Positions 1,303 to 63,955 of a DNA stretch of 64,000 nt are shown one piece after another; the stretch's first letter is position 1, and the number at the start of each line of letters is the position of its first letter. The notes below the pieces were generated by a model. It did no database searches and was not told the DNA's origin. It saw only the letters and a program-made list of their open reading frames with translations. Origin of the DNA: Paraspadella gotoi. Taxonomy: Eukaryota; Animalia; Chaetognatha. Where the stretch lies: assembly GCA_051294375.1 (NCBI GenBank), contig CM119267.1:24501783-24565782 (forward strand), read 5' to 3'. Both the position numbers and the translations under genes were made by a program.

Positions 1303-8933
<7,631 letters not shown>

Positions 8934-14008: not shown

Positions 14009-17000
14009 NNNNNNNNNNNNNNNNNNNNNNNNNAGAGAGAGAGAGAGAGAGAGAGAAGAGAGAGAGAGATGAGAGAGAGAGAGAGAATGAGGGGCATAGT
14101 CAATAAAATTTCCCAACTCCCCCTGCCCCTTCCCTCCTCCTCCTCCTCCTCCTCCAGGCCTCCTCATGATCGGCGTCGTCTTCGTCTCTTGCGTCGTGGG
14201 CGTCGACCCCGACAACGTGGCCACGCCCATCGCCGCCGCTTTGGAGATTTGACGACGCTCGCCATCTGGCCGAAGTGGCGAGGAGATTTTGGGAGAAGAG
14301 GAGAGGTTAAGCGTGGGGGGGAATGGGGAGGAGAGAGAGAATAGAGGGGGAGGATAGGGAGAGGATGAGGGGAGGAGATGTGGGGAGGATAGGAAGAAGG
14401 GAGGATAGAGATGAAGGGGAGTATAGGGAGAGAGGAGGGGAGGATTGGGAGAAAAGGAGGGGGAAGCAATGAGGGGGATGATAGGGGGAAGAAATATAGA
14501 AGAGGAGGATTGGGAAGTCAGAGAAGAAGAGAAAGGTTAGAAAGGAGAGAGGAAGTATTTAGGAGGGAGGAGCAAGAGGAAGAGGAAGAGGAAGATGAGT
14601 TAAGGAGAGGAAGAAGAGAGACACGCACTGCATCGGAATCCTTTTAGGATTTCCTGAAGGCGGCGCTAGCAGTCACTTAGATTTGAAGTTTTTTCTGTCT
14701 AACAAATGAGCAACCAACTACAAGCAAATTTTATACATTTTTAACGTAAGTGGGACAGACCGACGGGACTGCGACCGGGACAGACCGACGGACTGACGAC
14801 GGACAGACCGACGGACAGACCGACGGACGGACCGACGGACGGACCGACGGACAGACCGACGGACGACCGACGGACTGACGAGGACTGACCGACGGACAGA
14901 CCGACGGACTGACCGACGGACGGACCGACAGAAAAGTGACTTATAGAGTTGCTCCGCGAGTATTCGCGGCGCAACTAATAATAGGTAAATAAAGGAGATA
15001 AGAATTTAGTTCCTCTCCTCCTTTTCCCTCCCTCTCCATCTCTCACTCCCCTCTCTCTATCCCCCCTCTCTGCTCCTCTCTCACTCCCTCTCTGGCTCCC
15101 ATCCCTCCAGTCCTCCTTTTCAGCGCCATCTTGCTCCTCTTCCTCTTCCTCCTCGTGGCGCCCATCTGCGTGCCATCTGTCGTCGCAATCATTGGTGGCG
15201 CGATTTTGGCCTCCGGGTGGGCGCCGGTCATCAGCGCAATGGGCATCAGCAGCTTGGGAGGTGAAGGGACTTGAGTTTTCGTTGGACGATCGATCGACAA
15301 AAGAATTGATTGATGGAATTCGAGTTACAAGCGAACTGATGATGTTTCAGACTATCTTTCAGACTATCTGTCAGATGGTATTTTGACTGTCTGTTAGACG
15401 ATCTGTTAGACAGTCTGTCAGATTATCTGTTAAATTATCTGTTAAACTATCTGTCAGACTGTCTGTCAGACGGTTTTTTTACCGTCTATTAGACGTCTGT
15501 GAGACAGTCAGATTATCTGTTAAATTATCTGTTAGACTGTCTTTCAGATGGTCTTTCAGACGGTCTGTTAGATGGTCTGTTAGACGGTCTGTTAGATGGG
15601 CTGTTAGACAGTCTATCAGATTATCTGTTAAATTATCTGTGCAGACTATCTGTTAGGACTATCTGTTAGAATATCTATCAGGCTGTCGACAGTTAAATCG
15701 AACGATTCACTTGTTATTATGAAATTTTGGATCACGAGGATTTTTCTCCATCAATCAATCACACCCGCTTAACCGAAAAACCCTTCAACCAATCAACATT
15801 CAACCCATCAATCGTTGAACTACTAAACCAATCAATCGTTCAACCAATCATATTCTTCATCCAATCAGGTTTGATTCTCAACCGCGTCGTCCCATCTACT
15901 CGAGCATCGCCGCTTTTCAACCAATTATCAAACGCGTCGGGGAAACCCTCGTCGGGTCATGGCGTCCAGGTTACGGGGGGGGCTTGGCGTCGGTGTTGGG
16001 GCTTTTGGAAATGATGATCGTCACTTTGTTGGTCAAATATCGTCACTCGTAAAAATTGTCATATTGACGTTCTACCTTTTTTCGTTGGTTTGAAAATTGA
16101 GATGAAATTTTTTTCTTTTGTTTTCACAACGAAATATTCCACTGATAAAAGTCTGATAATAATCCAAATCCCTAATCCAAAAAACTTTTTCACTAACCCT
16201 AACTATTTTTACCAAATCTATAACCTAATCCCGAACCCCTATCCTAAACCCCTAAACCTAATTTCTTAACTTAAAAAACTGAATTCAAGCTTAAATGAGG
16301 CACTTTTGGTAAATATGGCCCCACGATATTTCCTTCCCCTCGAGATCTCCACGGATCTCCATCGCGAGAAGAAAACTTCAGATGATGAAGAGGAGGAGGA
16401 ATACTCCTCCCCTTCTTCCTCTTTCCTCCGTCCCTTCCTCTCCGCCTTTCTCGGTTCCTCCGTCACTCCCTCTGCGCACGCGTTCTCCTCGCTCTCGTCC
16501 TCCCGCGGTAAAGTTTCGATAGAGTGATACCGTGATGCAGAAGCGATTACGGTATCTTGATACTCTCCATTTTTTATTCATTGATCTTGGAAATCTTTTG
16601 CAATTTTGTCCTATATTTCTGTTTTAATGTATTTATTATAATTTATTATATTATAATTTATTATAATTTAGGTCATCTCCTCTTTCTCTTCGCCCTCATC
16701 TCTTTCAACGCGAATGAACGAATTTTAAACTTTGCGTTTCTCTTCGCTTATTTGATGCGGCGCACGTGCAGGTAATAAGATGATGTTACGTGTGAGAACG
16801 TGCGTTTGTATGCGTGTGCATGCGGGATCTGTGTTGGCTTCGTGTTCCTTTGTTTGCGGGTACGCTCGTGAGCCTTTATACGTGCCTTAATTTGGATTCA
16901 TTGCCTTTAGCTGCCTTTGTTTTACCGCGTTAACTAGCGAACAGACTTGATAATGGAAGATCAAAAAGTTTATATTCTTGTTTAAAAATCCGTCATTAGA

Positions 17001-17439
17001 CCCGTTAAATATTTATAAAACTATTATTTTATGCCTTTAATTTATGAAAAATTGCAAAATTATAACTATGTATACTTTCTTTTTGTCACCTTTTCATAAG
17101 GGATCCAAATATGTTAGAAAATTTTAACACTTGATTTTAAAGTGTTGACTATTTATTATAGTAGCACTATAATTACTACTTGTTTTATTAAAAAGATATC
17201 TTTAAGATTCATATATTTTATTCTCATCATGCTACTTCATTCCTCACCCCGTCTCTCCTTCTCCCAGGTTGTTCTTTTGTTGACGATCGCCCTCTGGCTC
17301 GTGCGGTGGCTCTGGCGGCGCGGCATCGATCCGGACGACGCCGCCATCCCTTATTTGACGTCATTGGGCGACCTCTTTGGGACGGCGTGTTGGCGGCGGC
17401 GTTCGTTGCGCTCGACGCCGTGGTGTCGCTGTGAGTTGA
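10238..17439 (+). CDS. SLC41A: SLC41 family (MgtE-like) Mg2+ transporter, 10 exons: 10238-10274, 10581-10742, 10814-10926, 13074-13254, 14158-14305, 15124-15260, 15869-15969, ~16344-16508, 16672-16771, 17268-17439
   Basis: Signature motifs [80 protein letters not shown]; GT-AG sites; exons 5-10 carry scattered indels that differ between the two duplicate copies. Confidence 0.92.
14650..14978 (-). mobile_element. HINE/DINE-1-like element, family B (also ~19730-20062 and a fuller copy at ~42390-42640)
   Basis: Minus strand: agttgcgccgcg hairpin, ctataagtcac core, GTCG/GTCY microsatellite; matching subTIR gttgcgccgc at ~42415. Confidence 0.6.
15345..15690. repeat. 12-bp intronic minisatellite (ctgttagactat-like); duplicate at ~20435-20790
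   Basis: Directly visible periodicity. Confidence 0.8.
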
Positions 17440-19231
17440 TCTCGAACAAAAGAGCATCGATGATCGATCGATTCGGCGACGAAGGATCGACGGATAGAAA
17501 AGAAAATATCATCGTTTGAATATATTAAGAATAATTAGTAATTTTCACTGTTCAGCGCTAAATTAAAACAATTATGGGAATCTACATTTTATTTATTTGA
17601 ACATAGTAATTTTATAATCTACCTAAGCTACTTACCAACATTGTATTATTACATAAATAAAACCGAAGTGCCCTCATATAATTTTCTGTTTGTTTACATT
17701 ATTTTTTATTAACCCCTTTTTTCCTCGGTTATGACATACAAGCCCTCGATTGATTTGCTGTTTATTGCGAATATACCACTAAGTCTTGTAATTGTTTGAT
17801 TATTTATATCATCACAAAAGAAACCCCTTAAATTTAATGATAATTAGGTGACAAATTAAAAAAGTTAGTTTGTGGTCACGTGATGAGAAATTATAATTCG
17901 GACAGAAATCATCATCACGCGGAACGTAAATAGTCTAATTAACCAAATATAAATAACTTTATGCTGTAGAGAATGAATCTTTCAGTCCTAAGGAGGTTGT
18001 ATTATGTAATAAAACTTATTTGTAACCTCTAAAAAAACTATAATTGCCAACAAATTACATCATTTCTATATCTTTACATGTATGTTTTCCATCATGGTAC
18101 AAGAAAAACCCTCGGCTCAGCCACTTGGGGAGACGAAAAGCACAATACTATAAAAAGTAGGGTTTAAGACGACGTGCGAACCACGGCTTTCCTTGCTAAC
18201 CACCGATTTTACCAACATGTCAATAAGCTCTGCGTAAACAAATTGACGTTTTAATTGACATATTATGAAATACCATAATTTAATCAATAACAAAAAACGC
18301 TGGCTCAGGTTCTGGGACTCTTTGATGGTACACCGCTTTCCCTTTCCAATCCCACGCAACTTTCTGTCGAACCGTTCATCCTGGAAAGCGTTAAGGCGCC
18401 CTCGCGGTTAATTGTTTCGACAGAGATGTGTGGAAACATCGCTGCGAACGATTCTTATCGATGAGCCGCCAGATGGAATCGCGTCTCATCGACGTTTGGA
18501 CGGCGGCGGATATCTCCGATGGTGGCGGAGGATTCCGGGGTGGGATTGGCAACCCTCCATGCCTGGCCACGCTCTCCCATGAAGGCTGGGATCACAGCCG
18601 GGGAGCCAACTCCCGCCGAGGGAGAATATCTCTTAAATGAGAGAGTCAATTTACGGACCGGCATAAAACTCGTACTGTGTAAAAGAAAAAATATAAAATG
18701 AAATCTAATATATTGAATATAATAAATTAATTTATCTCAATTGTACTGATTGCTAAATTTCTTAATGAAAAGTTCAGACGCGAGAGCTTTGAAATATCCT
18801 ACTAAGTATCTTTTATATCTTATCAATTTGTCTAGCTCACTTTCATAATATCTAATTATTATCTATCTCTCCTTTTTGTATATTATTATATGATTACTCA
18901 ACACGTTACAAATTTTCAATTTTGCACTATGATATATTACAGCAAATTGAAACTGATTATAAATATAATAATATTGTTGTTGAAACGAATAAAGTAATAA
19001 ACCGGAAAGTCAAATGTTTTTTTTTTATCATTAAATAGCTGATAATAATTTGATTTTGCACCAATTGATAAAACATAGCAATTAATATTATTTTAATAAA
19101 GGTACCAAAGCAGTGAAGGTTTTCTTTGTTTGTTTTTTTTTGCATTAATGAGGGATAGATTCTACCGCAAATTTGGTTTCGTACTTTTTGCGTACCCTGC
19201 CCCTTCCTCCTCCTCCTCCTCCTCCCTCCAG

Positions 19232-22200
19232 GCCTCCTCATGATCGGCGTCGTCTTCGTCTCTCGCGTCGTCGGCGTCGACCCCGACAACGTGGCCACGC
19301 CCATCGCCGCCGCTTTGGGAGATTTGACGACGCTCGGCCATCTGGCCGAAGTGGCGAGGAGATTTTTGGGAGAAGAGGAGAGGTTAAGCGTGGGGGGGAA
19401 TGGGGAGGAGAGAGAGAATAGAGGGGGAGGATAGGGAGAGGATGAGGGGAGGAGATGTGGGGAGGATAGGAAGAAGGGAGGATAGAGATGAAGGGGAGTA
19501 TAGGGAGAGAGGAGGGGAGGATTGGGAGAAAAGGAGGGGGAAGCAATGAGGGGGATGATAGGGGGAAGAAATATAGAAGAGGAGGATTGGGAAGTCAGAG
19601 AGAAGAGAAAGGTTAGAAAGGAGAGAGGGAAGTATTTAGGAGGGAGGAGCAAGAGGGAAGAGGAAGAGGAAGATGAGTTAAGGAGGAAGGAAGAAGAGAG
19701 ACACGCACTGCATCGGAATCCTTTTAGGATTTCCTGAAGGCGGCGCTAGCAGTCACTTAGATTTGAAGTTTTTTCTGTCTTAACAAATGAGCAACCAACT
19801 ACAAGCAAATTTTATACATTTTTAACGTAAGTGGGACAGACCGACGGACTGACCGACGGACAGACCGACGGACTGACCGACGGACAGACCGACGGACAGA
19901 CCGACGGACGGACCGACGGACGGACCGACGGACAGACCGACGGACTGACCGACGGACTGACCGATGGACTGACCGACGGACAGACCGACGGACTGACCGA
20001 CGGACGGACCGACAGAAAAGTGACTTATAGAGTTGCTCCGCGAGTATTCGCGGCGCAACTAATAATAGGTAAATAAAGGAGATAAGAATTTAGTTCCTCT
20101 CCTCCTTTTCCCCTCCCTCTCCATCTCTCACTCCCCTCTCTCTATCCCCCCTCTCTGCTCCTCTCTCACTCCCTCTCTGGCTCCCATCCCTCCAGTCCTC
20201 CTTTTCAGCGCCATCTTGCCTCCTCTTCCTCTTCCTCCTCGTGGCGCCCATCTGCGTCGCCATCTGTCGTCGCAATCCATTGGTGGCGCCGATTTTGGCC
20301 TCCGGGTGGACGCCGGTCATCAGCGCAATGGGCATCAGCAGCTTGGGAGGTGAAGGGACTTGAGTTTTCGTTGGACGATCGATCGACAAAAGAATTGATT
20401 GATGGATTCGAGTTACAAGCGAAACTGATGATGTTTCAGACTATCTTTCAGACTATCTTTTCAGACTATCTGTCAGATGGTATTTTGACTGTCTGTTAGA
20501 CGATCTGTTAGACAGTCTGTCAGATTATCTGTTAAATTATCTGTTAAACTATCTGTCAGACTGTCTGTCAGACGGTTTTTTTACCGTCTATTAGACGTCT
20601 GTGAGACAGTCAGATTATCTGTTAAATTATCTGTTCAGACTGTCTTTCAGATGGTCTTTCAGACGGTCTGTTAGATGGTCCTGTTAGACGGTCTGTTAGA
20701 TGGGCTGTTAGACAGTCTATCAGATTATCTGTTAAATTATCTGTGAGACTATCTGTTAGACTATCTGTTAGAATATCTATCAGGCTGTCGACAGTTAAAT
20801 CGAACGATTCACTTGTTATTATGAAATTTTGGATCACGAGGATTTTTCTCCATCAATCAATCACACCCGCTTAACCGAAAAAACCCTTCAACCAATCAAC
20901 ATTCAACCCATCAATCGTTGAACTACTAAACCAATCAAATCGTTCAACCAATCATATTCTTCATCCAATCAGGTTTGATTCTCAACGCGTCGTTCCCATC
21001 TACTCGAGCATCGCCGCTTTTCAACCAATTATCAACGGCGTCGGGGGAAACCTCGTCGGCGTCATGGCGTCCAGGTTACGAGGGGGGGCTTGGCGTCGGT
21101 GTTTGGGGCTTTGGAAATGATGATCGTCACTTTGTTGGTCAAATATCGTCACTCGTAATAAATTGTCATATTGACGTTCTACCTTTTTTCGTTGGTTTGA
21201 AAATTGAGATGAAATTTTTTTCTTTTGTTTTCACAACGAAATATTCCACTGATAAAAGTCTGATAATAATCCAAATCCCTAATCCAAAAACTTTTTCACT
21301 AACCCTAATATTTTACCAAATCTATAACCCTAATCCCGAACCCCTATCCTAAACCCCTAACCTAATTTCTTAACTTAAAAAACTGAATTCAAGCTTAAAT
21401 GAGGCACTTTTGGTAAATATGGCCCACGATATTTCCTTCCCCTCAGAATCTCCACGGATCTCCATCGCGAGAAGAAAACTTCAGATGATGAAGAGGAGGA
21501 GGAATACTCCTCCCCTTCTTCCTCTTTCCTCCGTCCCTTCCTCTCCGCCTTTCTCGGTTCCTCCCGTCACTCCCTCTGCGCACGCGTTCTCCTCGCTCTC
21601 GTCCTCCCGGGTAAAGTTTCGATAGAGTGATACCGTGATGCAGAAGCGATTACGGTATCTTGATACTCTCCATTTTTTATTCATTGATCTTGGAAATCTT
21701 TTGCAATTTTTGTCCTATATTTCTGTTTTAATGTATTTATTATAATTTATTATATTATAATTTATTATAATTTAGGTCATCTCCTCTTTCTCTTCGCCCT
21801 TCATCTTTTCAACGCGAATGAACGAAATTTAAACTTTGCGTTTCTCTTCGCTTATTTGATGGCGGCGCACGTGCAGGTAATAAGATGATGTTACGTGTGA
21901 GAACGTGCGTTTGTATGCGTGTGCATGCGGGGATCTGTGTTGGCCTTCGTGTTCCTTTGTTTGCGGGTACGCTCGTGAGCCTTTATACGTGCCTTAATTT
22001 GGATTCATTTGCCTTTAGCTGCCTTTGTTTTACCGCGTTAACTAGCGAACAGACTTGATAATGGAAGATCAAAAAAGTTTATATTCTTGTTTAAAAAATC
22101 CGTCATTAGACCCGTTAAATATTTATAAAACTATTATTTTATGCCTTTAATTTATGAAAAATTGCAAAATTATAACTATGTATACTTTCTTTTGTCACCT

Positions 22201-22552
22201 TTTCATAAGGGATCCAAATATGTTAGAAAAATTTTAACACTTGATTTTAAAGTGTTGACTATTTATTATAGTAGCACTATAATACTACTTGTTTGTTAAA
22301 AAGATATCTTTAAGGATTCATATATTTTTATTCTCATCATGCTACTTCATTCCTCACCCCGTCTTCTCCTTCTCCCAGGTTGTTCTTTTGTTGACGATCG
22401 CCCTCTGGCTCGTGCGGTGGCTCTGGCGGCGCGGCATCGATCCGGACGACGCCGCCATCCCTTATTTGACGTCATTGGGCGACCTCTTTGGGACGGCGCT
22501 GTTGGCGGCGGCGTTCGTTGCGCTCGACGCCGTTGGTGTCGCTGTGAGTTGA
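19232..22552 (+). CDS. SLC41A: Second copy of SLC41 exons 5-10 (19232-19382, 20209-20349, 20973-21074, 21447-21610, 21776-21876, 22379-22552)
   Basis: Same exons as 14158-17439; exons 5 and 10 are in frame here; probably an assembly or haplotype duplicate. Confidence 0.7.
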
Positions 22553-24749
22553 TCTCGAACAAAAGAGCATCGATGATCGATCGATTCGGCGACGAAGGAT
22601 CGACGGATAGAAAAGAAAAATATCATCGTTTGAATATATAAGAATAATTAGTACTTTTCACTGTTCAGCGCTAAATTAAAACAATTATGGGAATCTACAT
22701 TTATATTTAATTTGATTGAACATAGTAATTTTAAAATCTACCTAAAGCTACTTACCAACATTGTATTATTACATAAATAAAACCGAAGTGCCCTCATATA
22801 ATTTTCTGTTTGTTTACATTATTTTTATTAACCCCTTTTTTCCTCGGTTATGACATACAAGCCCTCGATTGATTTGCTGTTTATTGCGATATACCACTAA
22901 GTCTTGTAATCTGTTTGATTATTTATATCATCACAAAAAAGGAAACCCCTTAATTTAATGATAATTAGGTTGACAAAATTAAAAAAGTTAGTTTGTGGTC
23001 ACGTGATGAGAAATTTAATTCGGACAGAAATCATCATCACGCGGAACGTAAATAGTCTAATTAACCAAATATAAATAACTTTATGCTGTAGAGAATGAAT
23101 CTTTCAGTCCTAAGGAGGTTGTATTATGTAATAAAACTTATTTGTAACCTCTAAAAAAACTATAATTGCCAACAAATTTACATCATTTCTATATCTTTAC
23201 ATGTATGTTTTCCATCATGGTACAAGAAAAACCCTCGGCTCAGCCACTTGGGGAGACGAAAAGCACAATACTGTAAAAAGTAGGGTTTAAGACGACGTGC
23301 GAACCACGGGCTTTCCCTTGCTAACCACCGATTTTACCAACATGTCAATAAGCTCTGCGTAAACAAATTGACGTTTTAATTGACATATTATGAAATACCA
23401 TAATTTAATCAATAACAAAAAACGTGGCTCAGGTCTGGGACTCTTTGATGGTACACCCGCTTTCCCTTTCCAATCCCACGCAACTTTTCTGTCGAACCGT
23501 TCATCCTGGAAAGCGTTAAGGCGCCCTCGCGGTTAATTGTTTCGACAGAGAATGTTGGAAACATCGCTGCGAACGATTCTTATCGATGAGCCGCCAGATG
23601 GAATCGGCGTCTCATCGACGTTTGGACGGCGGCGGATATCCTCCCGATGGTGGCGGAGGATTCCGGGGTGGGATTGGCAACCCTCCATGCCTGGCCACGC
23701 TCTCCCATGAAGGCTGGGATCACAGCAGGGAGCCAACTCCCGCCGAGGGGAGAATATCTCTTAAATGAGAGAGTCAATTTACGGACCGGCATAAACTCGT
23801 ACGGTGTAAAAGAATAAAATATAAAATGAAATCTAATATATTGACTATAATAAATTAATTTATCTCAATTGTACTGAATTGCTAAATTTCTTAATGAAAA
23901 AGTTTTCAGACGCGAGAGCTTTGAAATATCCTACTAAGTATCTTTTATATCTTATCAATTTGTCTAGCTCACTTTCATAATATCTAATTATTATCTATCT
24001 CTCCGTTATTATTATATGATTATTCAAACACGTTACAAATTTTCAATTTTGCACTATGATATATTTACAGCAAATTGAAATGATTAAAATATAATAATAT
24101 TGTTGTTGAAACGAATAGAAGTAATAAACCGGAAAAGTCAAATGTTTTTTTTATCATTAAATCGCGATAATGATTTGATTTTTGCACCAATGATAAAACA
24201 TAGCAATTAATAATTATTTTAATAAAGGTACAAAGCAGTGAAGGTTTTCTTTGTTTGTTTTTGTTTGCATTAATGATGGATATAATTCTACCGCAAAATT
24301 TGGTTTCGTACTTTTTGCGTCTCGTCTCAAACAATTTTTGTTTTGGTTGAAATCGCCTTTGTTGCGAGATGACTATGACTATGAACTATGAATTTATATG
24401 AACTTATTAAAAAAAAACTACGGAAGTAATAAATGTAACAAGAATGTAAAAAAAAATTATTAATATTTTTTAAACCTTGAATTGATATGCAAGAACGTTA
24501 TAGATCAGGAGAGCATCATATTGCATCGTGACGAGAGACAGCAACATGGTCGACCAGAATTAAACCTTGCAACAGTAACTGTTGCACCCTCATTTTGACA
24601 ACATTATCTGGAGGAACATGACCAGATTGTATAAAACTGACATTGACAATGACATTGACAATGACATTAACATTGATATATATTACTCAAAAAAGAAACA
24701 GAAAAAACATAACAAAACAAAACAAGAGACGTAAAAGAATCAATGGCAA

Positions 24750-56347
<31,598 letters not shown>

Positions 56348-58440: not shown

Positions 58441-58527
58441 NNNNNNNNNNNNNNNNNNNNNNNNNAATAAATATGATTAAACAGATTTAAGTCATGTTAT
58501 ATTTCCAAGTACTGCATTAACTCCTAT

Positions 58528-59290: not shown

Positions 59291-59502
59291 TGTTATGGTG
59301 GACTAAAATCCACCATCCGTTCATCAGCGGCCATTGGTGCCGGAGGCAAGTCATTCGCCTCCCAACCCAAAGGTCCGAGGTTCTAGCCCGGTGGTCGCCT
59401 GTCAGTTAAGAGGGACGGGGCGCTTAACCCGCCTGTAACATGGTGTTACAGCCTGATCCGAAGCTCAGGGACTGCTTACATTGAGCGGTTCTGTCACTAA
59501 CA
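59291..59502 (+). mobile_element. LTR-like solo element, family 3 (tRNA-Gly-like head plus twister-like motif)
   Basis: TGTTA...TAACA termini (no TSD seen); ~150 nt homologous to the family-1 LTR; cattggtg...attcgcctccca...ggttc..cccgg resembles tRNA-Gly(CCC). Confidence 0.6.
59403..59474 (+). ncRNA. Candidate circularly permuted (type-P5-like) twister ribozyme, most intact copy
   Basis: P5 CAGU/ACUG; P2' G(A)GG; GA; T1' CGG; P1 G-U closed by GCGC; UAA; P2 CCC; T2 GC; P3 CUGUAAC/GUUACAG; P4 CCUGA/UCAGG with loop U-CCG-AA-GC. Confidence 0.65.
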
Positions 59503-61453: not shown

Positions 61454-62441
61454 TGTAGCGGTAGTATTTCATACCCTGCTACTCGTCCCAGAATCAGCAG
61501 CACCTATAGCGCCAGAGGTAGCACAAGCTCCTCCCAACCCAAAGGTCTCGGGTTCGTGCCCTGCTGATTCACACAAGTAAAAGTGGGATGGGGCGTCTAA
61601 ACCACCTGTAGTGACGGACTGCAGCCTGATCCGAAGTTCGGGACCTTGTGTGCAACGGATGGTGAACTGCTCGCGACATTGTCTTCCACATTGGTGAGCC
61701 CACACGAACACCCTGGTACGTTAATACACCTCTGCTCTTGACCATCGTGTGTGAAGATGGGAGCAAGAATAGGCAGCCCCTCCTAGAGTGCTCGGGCACA
61801 ATGTGTGCATCATAGCCATCACACTTGCGTGGGAGTGTGATGCCTAGAGGGGATGTGTAGTGGTAGTATTTCATACCCTGCTACTCGTCCAAAAATCAGC
61901 AGCACTTATGGCGCCGGAGGTAGCACGAGCTTCTCCCAACCCAAAAGGACTCGGGTTCGCGCCCTGCTGATTCACACAAGTAAAAGCGGGACGGGGCGTC
62001 TAACCCACCTGAAGTGACGAACTACAGCCCGATCCAAAGTTCGGGACCTTGTGTGCAATGGATGGTGAACTGCTCGCGGCATCGTCTTCCACATTAGTGA
62101 GCCCACACAAACATGTTAGTTCACCTCTGCCCTCGACTTCATGTGTGCAGACGGGAGCCGGAATAGGCAGCCCCTCCTAGAGTGCTCGAGCACAACTCGT
62201 GCATCATAGCCATCAAACTTGCGCGGGTGTGTGATGCCTAAGGGGGGGATGTGTCGCAGTAGTATTTCATACCCTGCTACTCTGCCGCAGGTAGCACGAG
62301 CTCCTCCCAACCCAAAGGACTCGGGTTCGCGCCCTGCTGATTCACACAAGTAAAAGCGGGATGGGGCGTCTATCCCACCTGAAGGGACAAACTACCTTGT
62401 GTGCAACGCACGGTGAACTGCTCGCGGCATCGTCTTCCACA
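61454..62441 (+). mobile_element. Tandem TRIM / retrozyme-like mini LTR retrotransposon: LTR1 61454-61690, LTR2 61856-62093, LTR3 62252-62441 (internally deleted), two ~160-bp internal domains
   Basis: LTRs TGTAG...CCACA; PBS-like TGGTGAGCCCA 1 nt after LTR1; PPTs agagggga / aaggggggga before LTR2 and LTR3; no coding capacity. Confidence 0.8.
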
Positions 62442-63217: not shown

Positions 63218-63452
63218 TGTGGAAGACAATGCCACGAGCAGTTCACCATCCGTTGCACACAAGATCCCGAACTTCGGATCGGGCTGTAGTCCGTCACTAC
63301 TGGTGGGTTAGAAGACCCGTCGCGCTCTCTTGTGTGAATCAGCAGGGCACGAACCAGAGACCTTTGGGTTAAGAGGAGCTCGTGCTAGCTCCGGAGCCAT
63401 AGGTGCTGCTGATTCCTGGACGAGTAACGGGGAATGAAATACTACCGCTTCA
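63218..63452 (-). mobile_element. Solo LTR of family 1
   Basis: Full-length reverse complement of 61454-61690; flanks tctt/tctc. Confidence 0.8.
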
Positions 63453-63509: not shown

Positions 63510-63582
63510 TGTCAATTATTGAAACGATTCCTTTTTGTTACAAAGCTGCGCCCGTCAATCAGGTGCTTAAAGCTCTCTATCT

Positions 63583-63613
<31 letters not shown>

Positions 63614-63783
63614 CCTTTCTGTCTCTTTAGACACACGAGAACCTGTTAAATTATTTCCAGACATCCCAATCTGATGCCGAGAAATCGTCCCACGAAGTCT
63701 CGTGGTCCAATTTATGTGTCATAACTGACTATTTCTAGTAATGTCAATTTTCAAAACGATTCCCGTCAATCAGGTGCTTAACG

Positions 63784-63847
<64 letters not shown>

Positions 63848-63955
63848 AGACACACAAGAACCTGTTAAATTATTTCCAGACATCCCAATCTGATTCCGAT
63901 AAATAGACCCACGAAGTCTCGTGGTCCAATTTATGCGTCATAACCGACTATTTCA
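63510..63955. repeat. Two-copy tandem repeat (~220 bp) with internal (TC)n
   Basis: caatcaggtgcttaa...(tc)n tttagacacac...cacgaagtctcgtggtccaatttatg occurs twice. Confidence 0.75.

Follow-up and report, generated by a model that had tools for sequence, protein, structure and literature searches.

Several described systems come close to the element analysed here, a candidate retrozyme with long terminal repeats (LTRs) lying in a 64,000-nucleotide stretch of the chaetognath Paraspadella gotoi (contig CM119267.1 of assembly GCA_051294375.1, positions 24,501,783 to 24,565,782; hereafter the window, numbered from its first base). Helenus (TRIMp3) elements are miniature retrotransposons with terminal repeats (TRIMs) that have tRNA-type A and B boxes in the LTR, known from fungi, one plant and six animal phyla; in animals they have 4-bp target-site duplications (TSDs) and a Gypsy-like primer-binding site (PBS), and their transcription by RNA polymerase III (Pol III) is unproven (PMC10886601). 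Cassandra TRIMs likewise carry, within the LTR, an internal promoter for Pol III and form long tandem arrays, but they are plant elements with a 5S-derived promoter and a Pol III terminator instead of a ribozyme (PMC10886601). The plant LTR retrozymes are non-coding; each of their LTRs contains a self-cleaving ribozyme, and they have a PBS, a polypurine tract (PPT), 4-bp TSDs and multimeric arrays. Two cuts release a monomer whose circle is the proposed template of a Ty3-gypsy reverse transcriptase (PMC4918200). In animals, retrozymes are non-LTR elements with type I hammerheads (PMC9695139); those of the axolotl (HHR_Amex1) have monomers of 170–400 nt, a one-pair ribozyme stem with a palindromic tetraloop, better cleavage as dimers, circularisation by an RtcB-type enzyme and long TSDs, and are without LTR, PBS or PPT (PMC7229834). 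Truncated twister ribozymes are cited only at the 5' ends of RTE elements (PMC7761336), and the T-variant twisters of Schistosoma Perere-3 provide a case in which a twister with an altered P1 serves an animal retrotransposon; there the ribozyme stands at the 5' end of an autonomous non-LTR element, in P1-type topology and one copy per element, with no circle and no mention of dimers in the text covered (PMC8501958).

At 61454–62441 of the window lies an array, the tandem and partly decayed copy of a non-coding LTR retroelement that is present in many copies and is a Helenus-like TRIM. Our reading is that its LTR combines a likely Pol III promoter with a predicted paired twister, which would yield a 403-nt circle to be mobilised by a Gypsy-type partner, and we put the probability of this reading as a whole at roughly 0.55. 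Like Helenus, the element is a TRIM shorter than 1 kb with an A box (TRGCY..YGG) and a B box (GGTTC) in two LTRs, PBS-like and PPT-like sites and a tandem arrangement of the kind seen in LTR-11_DR, and the B-box form GGTTCGCGCCC is common to the array and Helenus-1_AcRu; unlike Helenus, for which no ribozyme is reported and in whose main text, as covered, the word twister is absent, it carries a ribozyme-like fold, and its LTRs have none of the T runs that follow the B box in many Helenus LTRs (PMC10886601). The plant LTR retrozymes differ in having a type III hammerhead active as a monomer, LTRs of 300–400 bp and monomers of 600–1000 nt, in being confined to plants with no tRNA-type promoter described, and in that their circles are experimental where ours are predicted (PMC4918200). 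The structural marks of an LTR retrozyme, a ribozyme-like motif in both LTRs together with PBS-like and PPT-like sites, are present here; the type III hammerhead is not, and neither Rfam nor a core scan found any hammerhead. In its predicted mode of action the element resembles a plant LTR retrozyme. Cleavage and circle formation, as known from the axolotl elements, are likewise predictions for the array.

An original prediction made from the letters alone had described this locus as LTR-internal-LTR-internal-LTR with TG...CA ends, a PBS-like site, PPTs and no open reading frame, and this is borne out by sequence and alignments (Table 1). The array spans 988 bp, every LTR in it begins with TG and ends with CA, and no open reading frame of at least 120 aa lies within the element, whose LTR-internal-LTR unit (237 + 165 + 238 = 640 bp) is non-coding and stays below the roughly 1.3 kb that bounds Helenus elements. 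LTR2 is 91.1% identical to LTR1, with 17 of the 21 differing columns (of 237) being transitions, while the two internal regions are 86.5% identical and the PBS-like site, TGGTGAGCCCA in the first, carries one change in the second. The accompanying statement that each LTR of about 237 bp bears both a promoter module and a ribozyme fold holds for LTR1 and LTR2; it fails for LTR3, which is deleted to 190 bp and has lost the 5' stem arm along with some of the A box, as well as the greater part of P3/P4. With LTR3 predicted dead and a P2 pair broken in LTR1, the array looks old.

The family to which the array belongs, family A, is dispersed, present in high copy number, bounded by sharp TG and CA ends and rich in solo LTRs, as follows from contig pile-ups, from contigs with unlike flanks stopping at its ends and from one bridging contig. 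These contigs come from three DNA sequencing runs (X1, X2 and X3) of two studies, and the run that matches best may be the one from which the assembly was made. Contig depth over the LTRs reaches about 2000 times and over the first internal region about 50 times or more that of the flanks, ratios that are not copy numbers. Contigs with unlike flanks end at 61454 (27 in X1, 19 in X2 and 10 in X3) and behind 62092–62093 or 62441 (38 in X1 and 23 in X2), agreement among the flanks of end-stopping contigs being near 0.4–0.5, and an X3 contig spanning an LTR end, the internal region and an LTR start has a depth of 581 against 7–25 in single-locus contigs. The window itself also holds copies that the original prediction had not noticed: a minus-strand solo LTR of family A (63218–63452) and members of two diverged sister families, B and C. 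The three families are only about 50–70% alike.

The tRNA-type boxes placed by the original prediction inside a 10-bp stem are confirmed. In LTR1 the stem (61491–61500/61561–61570) encloses A- and B-box-like motifs, which are 44–45 nt apart, the spacing found in tRNA genes, and an equally good pair of boxes arose in 11 of 3000 dinucleotide shuffles for LTR1 and 5 of 3000 for LTR2. The module folds with z-scores of −3.7 (LTR1) and −3.1 (LTR2), ARAGORN called no tRNA gene in it, and the boxes are weak in family B, where 137 of 3000 shuffles were as good. From these motifs the module likely serves as a Pol III promoter. A run of four T residues (T4) is found neither in the 988-bp array nor in the LTRs of families B and C, which fits read-through transcription, yet is ordinary for 400 nt of such composition.

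Downstream of the module lies a fold that is very probably of twister ancestry, and its young copies are likely to be catalytically active. It sits where the original prediction had placed it (61570–61652 and 61973–62055) and has the P5 permutation, in the order P5, A-rich joint, P2', GA, T1 arm, linker, UAA, P2, T2 arm, P3, P4/L4 and P5', with a P4 loop reading U-CCG-AA-GU. Type P5 twisters (RF02684) have the same order P2'-GA-T1-P1-UAA-P2-T2-P4/L4, two pseudoknots, the catalytic G and A+1 (PMC5408937). The LTR domain departs from them in having both P3 and P5, a bulged P2, a 6-nt linker instead of a P1 hairpin of at least 16 nt and, in families A and B, an A-U pair closing P4 and T1 CGG/CCG; it falls below all Rfam thresholds. 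It is a twister by fold and covariation and not by Rfam or P1. Nor is it an ordinary one: the catalytic landmarks are kept, but a self-complementary hexamer stands in the place of P1, and this speaks for cleavage by pairs of LTRs.

Three kinds of evidence carry the twister assignment. The first is positional: a scan for P4 and L4 over both strands of the window (128 kb) gave six sites, all six inside these LTR units and all with GA, the 6-nt linker and UAA at equal spacing. A P5-type descriptor built from families A and B, with the linker length left free at 4–40 nt, matched family B and, unforeseen, family C (41292), the shuffles matching in 1, 4 and 0 of 20000 cases; LTR1 and the solo A copy were missed because of their private mismatches. 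The second is covariation. Over six cores, 92.9% of 126 cells are paired (25–51% in slid controls; T1 94.4%, T2 91.7%, P4 100%, P2, with a one-base bulge, 88.9%), and two-sided changes occur in 10 of 21 pairs, among them pairs of T1 (2 of 3), T2 (1 of 2), P2, P3 and P4, as where T1 CGG/CCG stands against GGA/UCC and T2 AC/GU against GC/GC between families. None of 500 shuffles equalled the paired share or the covariation score, while 16 and 32 of 500 did so for two count measures. The landmarks follow in order, UAA in all six cores and GA in five, with L4 reading U-NCN-AA-GY. A 4-bp P2 (CCAC/GUGG) was rejected, as most other copies have C at 61584 and T2 covaries solely under a 3-nt P2. Third, the defects of the array appear to be its own. 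The original prediction had warned that the copies carry mismatches and may be inactive, and indeed the first P2 pair is broken in LTR1 and LTR2 has one mismatch each in T1 and P3, in addition to the LTR3 deletions; at the broken pairs (61601, 62012 and 62036), however, the pairing letter accounts for 93%, 98% and 78% of X1 depth (from 40 of the 132 variant rows of that run), and since most depth from other copies thus has the pairing letter, the breaks represent private decay.

Phage twisters, collected by motif and from Rfam alignments, served as a yardstick. They are detected by the same Rfam library that misses the LTR domain; of 85 distinct stretches, 16 were assigned to type P5, and the descriptor matched 14 of 112 loci. 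T2 reads AC in 64 of 75 classified phage stretches, and six phage matches that combine a 3-nt P2 with T2 AC/GU lie above the Rfam Twister-P5 cut-off. A covariance model of the six cores matched phage P4-L4 (best E 9e-5), which is weak evidence as those loci were picked by the same motif, and found no additional intact copy in the window. As a separate observation, six phage twister-like RNAs (L145, L188, L196, L200, L201 and L209) have a 3-nt P2 opposite a bulged 4-nt strand together with T2 AC/GU; none of the five scanned was hit by Rfam at E 0.01, suggesting a further uncatalogued twister variant.

The most unusual part of the fold is the linker. Between the T1 arm and UAA stand six bases in all seven copies (the six cores and LTR3), whereas the link is at least 16 nt in 75 phage P5-type stretches, bar one of 7 nt that is a misparse. 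In six of the seven copies, across three families, the hexamer is self-complementary (GGCGUC, GGCGCU, UGGCCG, CGGCCG; the property is lost in the decayed solo A copy), with self-duplex energies of −6.3 to −10.7 kcal/mol, and its centre pair, which is impossible within one strand, swaps between families, from C-G (A and B) to G-C (C). Of 707 hexamers in the LTR background, 34 (4.8%) are self-complementary. Stem P1 is reduced to this 6-nt linker, possible as a helix shared by two copies, and two-strand folding gave the full double architecture in three of six domains. The linker design suggests a "double twister" built by two successive LTRs: the two linkers would pair into a single P1 of 6 bp, flanked on either side by an active site, each site assembled from halves of two LTRs. 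A precedent exists in the amphibian hammerheads, whose one-pair stem and palindromic tetraloop cleave far better as dimers (PMC7229834). Given that the ribozyme is active at all, the balance tips slightly towards dimer-dependent cleavage.

The cut positions foreseen in the original prediction, 61598/9 and 62001/2, are indeed 403 nt apart, and a pathway can be proposed from them. After transcription of the array by Pol III, likely reading through, the two twisters would act as a pair, cutting at U61598^A and at U62001^A to release a 403-nt monomer, which a host RtcB-type enzyme could ligate into a circle; a Gypsy-type reverse transcriptase would then copy it from a tRNA primer, after the plant retrozyme model (PMC4918200). 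A single round of minus-strand synthesis with the circle as template would give LTR-PPT-internal-PBS, an intermediate that linear elements reach via strand transfer, and a circle with a single twister would presumably not recut itself. A stronger version of this reading, that the families make up an ancient and diversified class of LTR retrozymes in animals, TRIMs driven by Pol III and equipped with an obligate double twister that fires only with both LTRs on one RNA, excising an exact monomer whose uncuttable circle replaces the first strand transfer, is held more tentatively, at somewhat below even odds. Divergent RT-PCR by itself cannot prove such circles, because the ligated junction is an ordinary LTR between PPT and PBS and is identical to tandem-array DNA.

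A number of observations weigh against our reading. With regard to the ribozyme, the Rfam twister models (CL00120), proposed as a check, returned no match in the array or in single domains even at E 5–10. The P4 pair that closes L4, essentially invariant as G-C in twisters (PMC5408937), keeps that form in family C but reads A-U in A and B, and none of 28 phage stretches having the A-U form shows it in a twister context; the bulged P2 recurs in six phage loci, but of the five scanned none had an Rfam hit. The covariation is drawn from six sequences of three lineages that are themselves the source of the structure. The lack of any Rfam score, the A-U pair and the bulged P2, together with a C-G at the first T1 pair and a family A relic without the entire ribozyme domain, would suit a twister-derived but non-catalytic fold, kept in family A as a structural signal (a packaging dimer contact or a recognition site for reverse transcriptase) in a Helenus-type TRIM with linear RNA. 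Retroviral genomes use self-complementary contacts in RNA dimerisation, and the hexamer could be such a contact. The catalytic G, the scissile U-A, A+2, the U and AA of L4 and both pseudoknots are nevertheless preserved over three families, with compensatory changes, and a bare scaffold has no need of these unpaired letters; we consider this alternative quite improbable.

With regard to the paired architecture, the self-complementary linker is not rare for its composition, as 24 of 60 permutations (40%) of the family A letters are self-complementary, and family B, the truncated C copy and the solo A copy all failed to take the double form in two-strand folding. The unconstrained fold of an RNA spanning LTR1 and LTR2 takes a crossed form (pair probabilities of about 0.5–0.6), favoured in constrained folding at −195.0 against −187.9 kcal/mol for two monomers, but this was dropped as evidence for the palindrome since P5 cross-pairs in 23 of 30 linker permutations that are not self-complementary as well. 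Both T1 helices are fully Watson-Crick in the crossed form, probably through chance CpG decay, and the LTR2 site could still cut in it. A twister active as a monomer, with a one-pair P1 and a tetraloop, is the alternative here and may give the same circle or only trim RNA ends; in one variant the cut supplies a 3' end that replaces the Pol III terminator in a linear LTR cycle, the repeated region R running from start site to cut. P1 is dispensable for twister chemistry, P1-less twisters cutting near the wild-type rate (PMC5408937), P1-less variants serve the Perere-3 elements (PMC8501958), a first-to-sixth pair in the linker is possible in all seven copies, the solo A copy included, the hexamer is so rich in G and C that a palindrome is not rare, and the absence of T4 runs from the array and from the B and C LTRs fits a cut in place of a terminator. 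However, the swapped centre pair and the fixed 6-nt length match the prediction of a shared helix, the monomer folds of family A tie the T1 arm and linker into competing hairpins, and, since R would be lost through cleavage in the 5' LTR, the linear cycle requires a silent 5' twister. Monomer action is unlikely in our view, if the most serious of the competitors. Searches for 6-nt-linker twisters in metagenome, viral and prokaryote-genome collections, which hold little animal DNA, gave 6, 7 and 1 matches; 13 of these 14 were without the helices and the remaining one (L124) is an ordinary P5 twister.

With regard to the element as a whole, Helenus elements without a reported ribozyme also form tandem arrays (PMC10886601), and the A and B boxes of family C are not convincing, the B box in particular. 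TSD-like flanks agree in three of four letters at two solo copies, and none are seen at the array, which is flanked by TTAC and TACA, or at family B. The dispersed copies with sharp TG and CA ends that the original prediction called for are borne out in three runs; the duplications are not clean. The PBS-like site matches none of the tRNAs of Figure S2 in the Helenus paper, the nearest (Trp) sharing TTGGTGA only. Taken with the tRNA-derived head typical of short interspersed elements (SINEs) and with the fact that the animal retrozymes described are non-LTR tandem repeats (PMC7229834, PMC9695139), the absence of a TSD at the array and the unmatched PBS could suggest that the repeats are not true LTRs, the array being instead a SINE-like or Penelope-dependent tandem retrozyme moved by target-primed reverse transcription, with TG...CA, PBS and PPT incidental. 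Yet contigs stop sharply where the 237-bp unit has its TG and CA, their ends following neither the 403-bp period nor the cut site, solo TG...CA units with near 4-bp TSDs occur in two families, the PBS-like and PPT-like sites lie exactly at the inner borders of the unit, and LTR depth far exceeds internal depth, as expected of solo LTRs. We give this explanation very little credence.

Among the related copies (Table 1), the ends of the family B unit are inferred from its sequence, and the solo family C unit at 28491–28762 has a perfectly palindromic linker but mutated catalytic GA and T2, and is predicted dead. The family A-related relic could have arisen by deletion or could be a sister TRIM that has a Pol III terminator and no ribozyme. 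Some 125 nt upstream of the truncated copy of family C, a short stretch (41046–41056) matches the start of the family C LTR, which suggests an insertion into that copy. Beside the solo A LTR lies a tandem repeat of two copies of about 190–220 bp (63551–63735 and 63762–63954), 88% identical.

Table 1. Coordinates of the array, its predicted parts and related copies in the window
Feature	Position	Strand	Details
LTR1, family A	61454–61690	+	237 bp, TG...CA
tRNA-like module, LTR1	61491–61570	+	10-bp closing stem; A-box-like 61507–61518, B-box-like 61551–61561; likely Pol III type 2 promoter (predicted)
P5-permuted twister-like domain, LTR1	61570–61652	+	P5 61570–77/61645–52, GA 61587–88, T1 arm 61589–91, linker 61592–97, predicted cut U61598^A61599, P2 61601–03, T2 arm 61604–05, P3 61606–24, P4/L4 61625–42
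Internal region 1	61691–61855	+	165 bp; PBS-like 61692–61702, PPT-like 61846–61853
LTR2	61856–62093	+	238 bp; A-box-like 61909–61920, B-box-like 61954–61964
Twister-like domain, LTR2	61973–62055	+	linker 61995–62000, predicted cut U62001^A62002
Internal region 2	62094–62251	+	158 bp; PBS-like site altered, PPT-like 62240–62249
LTR3	62252–62441	+	190 bp; deletions of 25 nt in tRNA-like module and 22 nt in P3/P4; predicted dead
Predicted cut-to-cut monomer	61599–62001	+	403 nt, one LTR equivalent plus one internal region
Solo LTR, family A	63218–63452	-	88% identical; flanks GAGA / AAGA (agreeing with a 4-bp TSD in 3 of 4 letters); linker self-complementarity lost
Family B LTR-like unit	59291–59502	+	about 70% alike; TGTTA...TAACA; A/B-box-like module; twister core intact (GA 59414), cut predicted at U59425^A
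Family C copy, truncated	41182–41354	+	twister core intact (GA 41292), cut predicted at U41303^A; unforeseen descriptor hit
Family C solo LTR-like unit	28491–28762	-	272 bp; TGTAG...TCCACA; flanks ATTT / GTTT (3 of 4 letters)
Family A-related relic	6630–6757	+	tRNA-like module, T-rich LTR end, PBS-like site; without ribozyme

The remainder of the window contains host exons and other repeats. TRPC-type ion channel exons (PF00520, PF08344) lie on the minus strand at 32306–32611 and 47406–47705, one TRPC-type exon showing 66–71% identity to brachiopod, water-flea and flatworm proteins and 57–59% to those of fish; the family C copy at 41.2 kb falls between them and is likely intronic. A 5.1-kb tandem duplication (14121–19193 and 19195–24320, 96.7% identical) carries exons of an MgtE/SLC41-type cation transporter (PF01769 at 17118–17516); it adjoins an N gap at 14009 and may be a real duplication or an assembly artefact. 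A fragment of a non-LTR reverse transcriptase (PF00078) occupies 43850–44389 on the minus strand, and a minisatellite of 3.4 kb (50735–54167), its repeat unit about 65 bp long, produces spurious long open frames on that strand. Two inverted-repeat pairs, about 92% identical (56563–56806/57710–57949 and 57033–57221/58248–58440), adjoin an N gap at 58441 and possibly reflect an assembly inversion or a foldback element, while a 1.3-kb repeat with CT-rich tracts stands in tandem at 1303–2636 and 2637–3890 (84% identical).

The original prediction knew of no described element that combines LTR, tRNA-type promoter and twister. The first two are known together in Helenus (PMC10886601) and the ribozyme is the new part: in the literature searched, which comprised full texts with few subscription papers and no repeat databases, there was no twister in an LTR, no double or dimeric twister and no animal LTR retrozyme. 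The motifs of the array were also absent from 5 of the 11 parts of the Helenus consensus file, in which line breaks may hide matches; four L4-like 8-mers there lay outside a twister context. As predicted from its structure, the element is a candidate for the first animal LTR retrozyme. If the reading is true, it would also hold the first dimeric twister and the first twister in an LTR, overlooked since the Rfam models are blind to it, and it would unite three things known singly, tRNA-promoter TRIMs, LTR retrozymes and twisters. The paired twister would be a new ribozyme architecture that gates on the presence of both LTRs, adding to the few roles so far assigned to twisters, and with six occurrences in one 64-kb window such an Rfam-invisible twister class may abound in invertebrate genomes.
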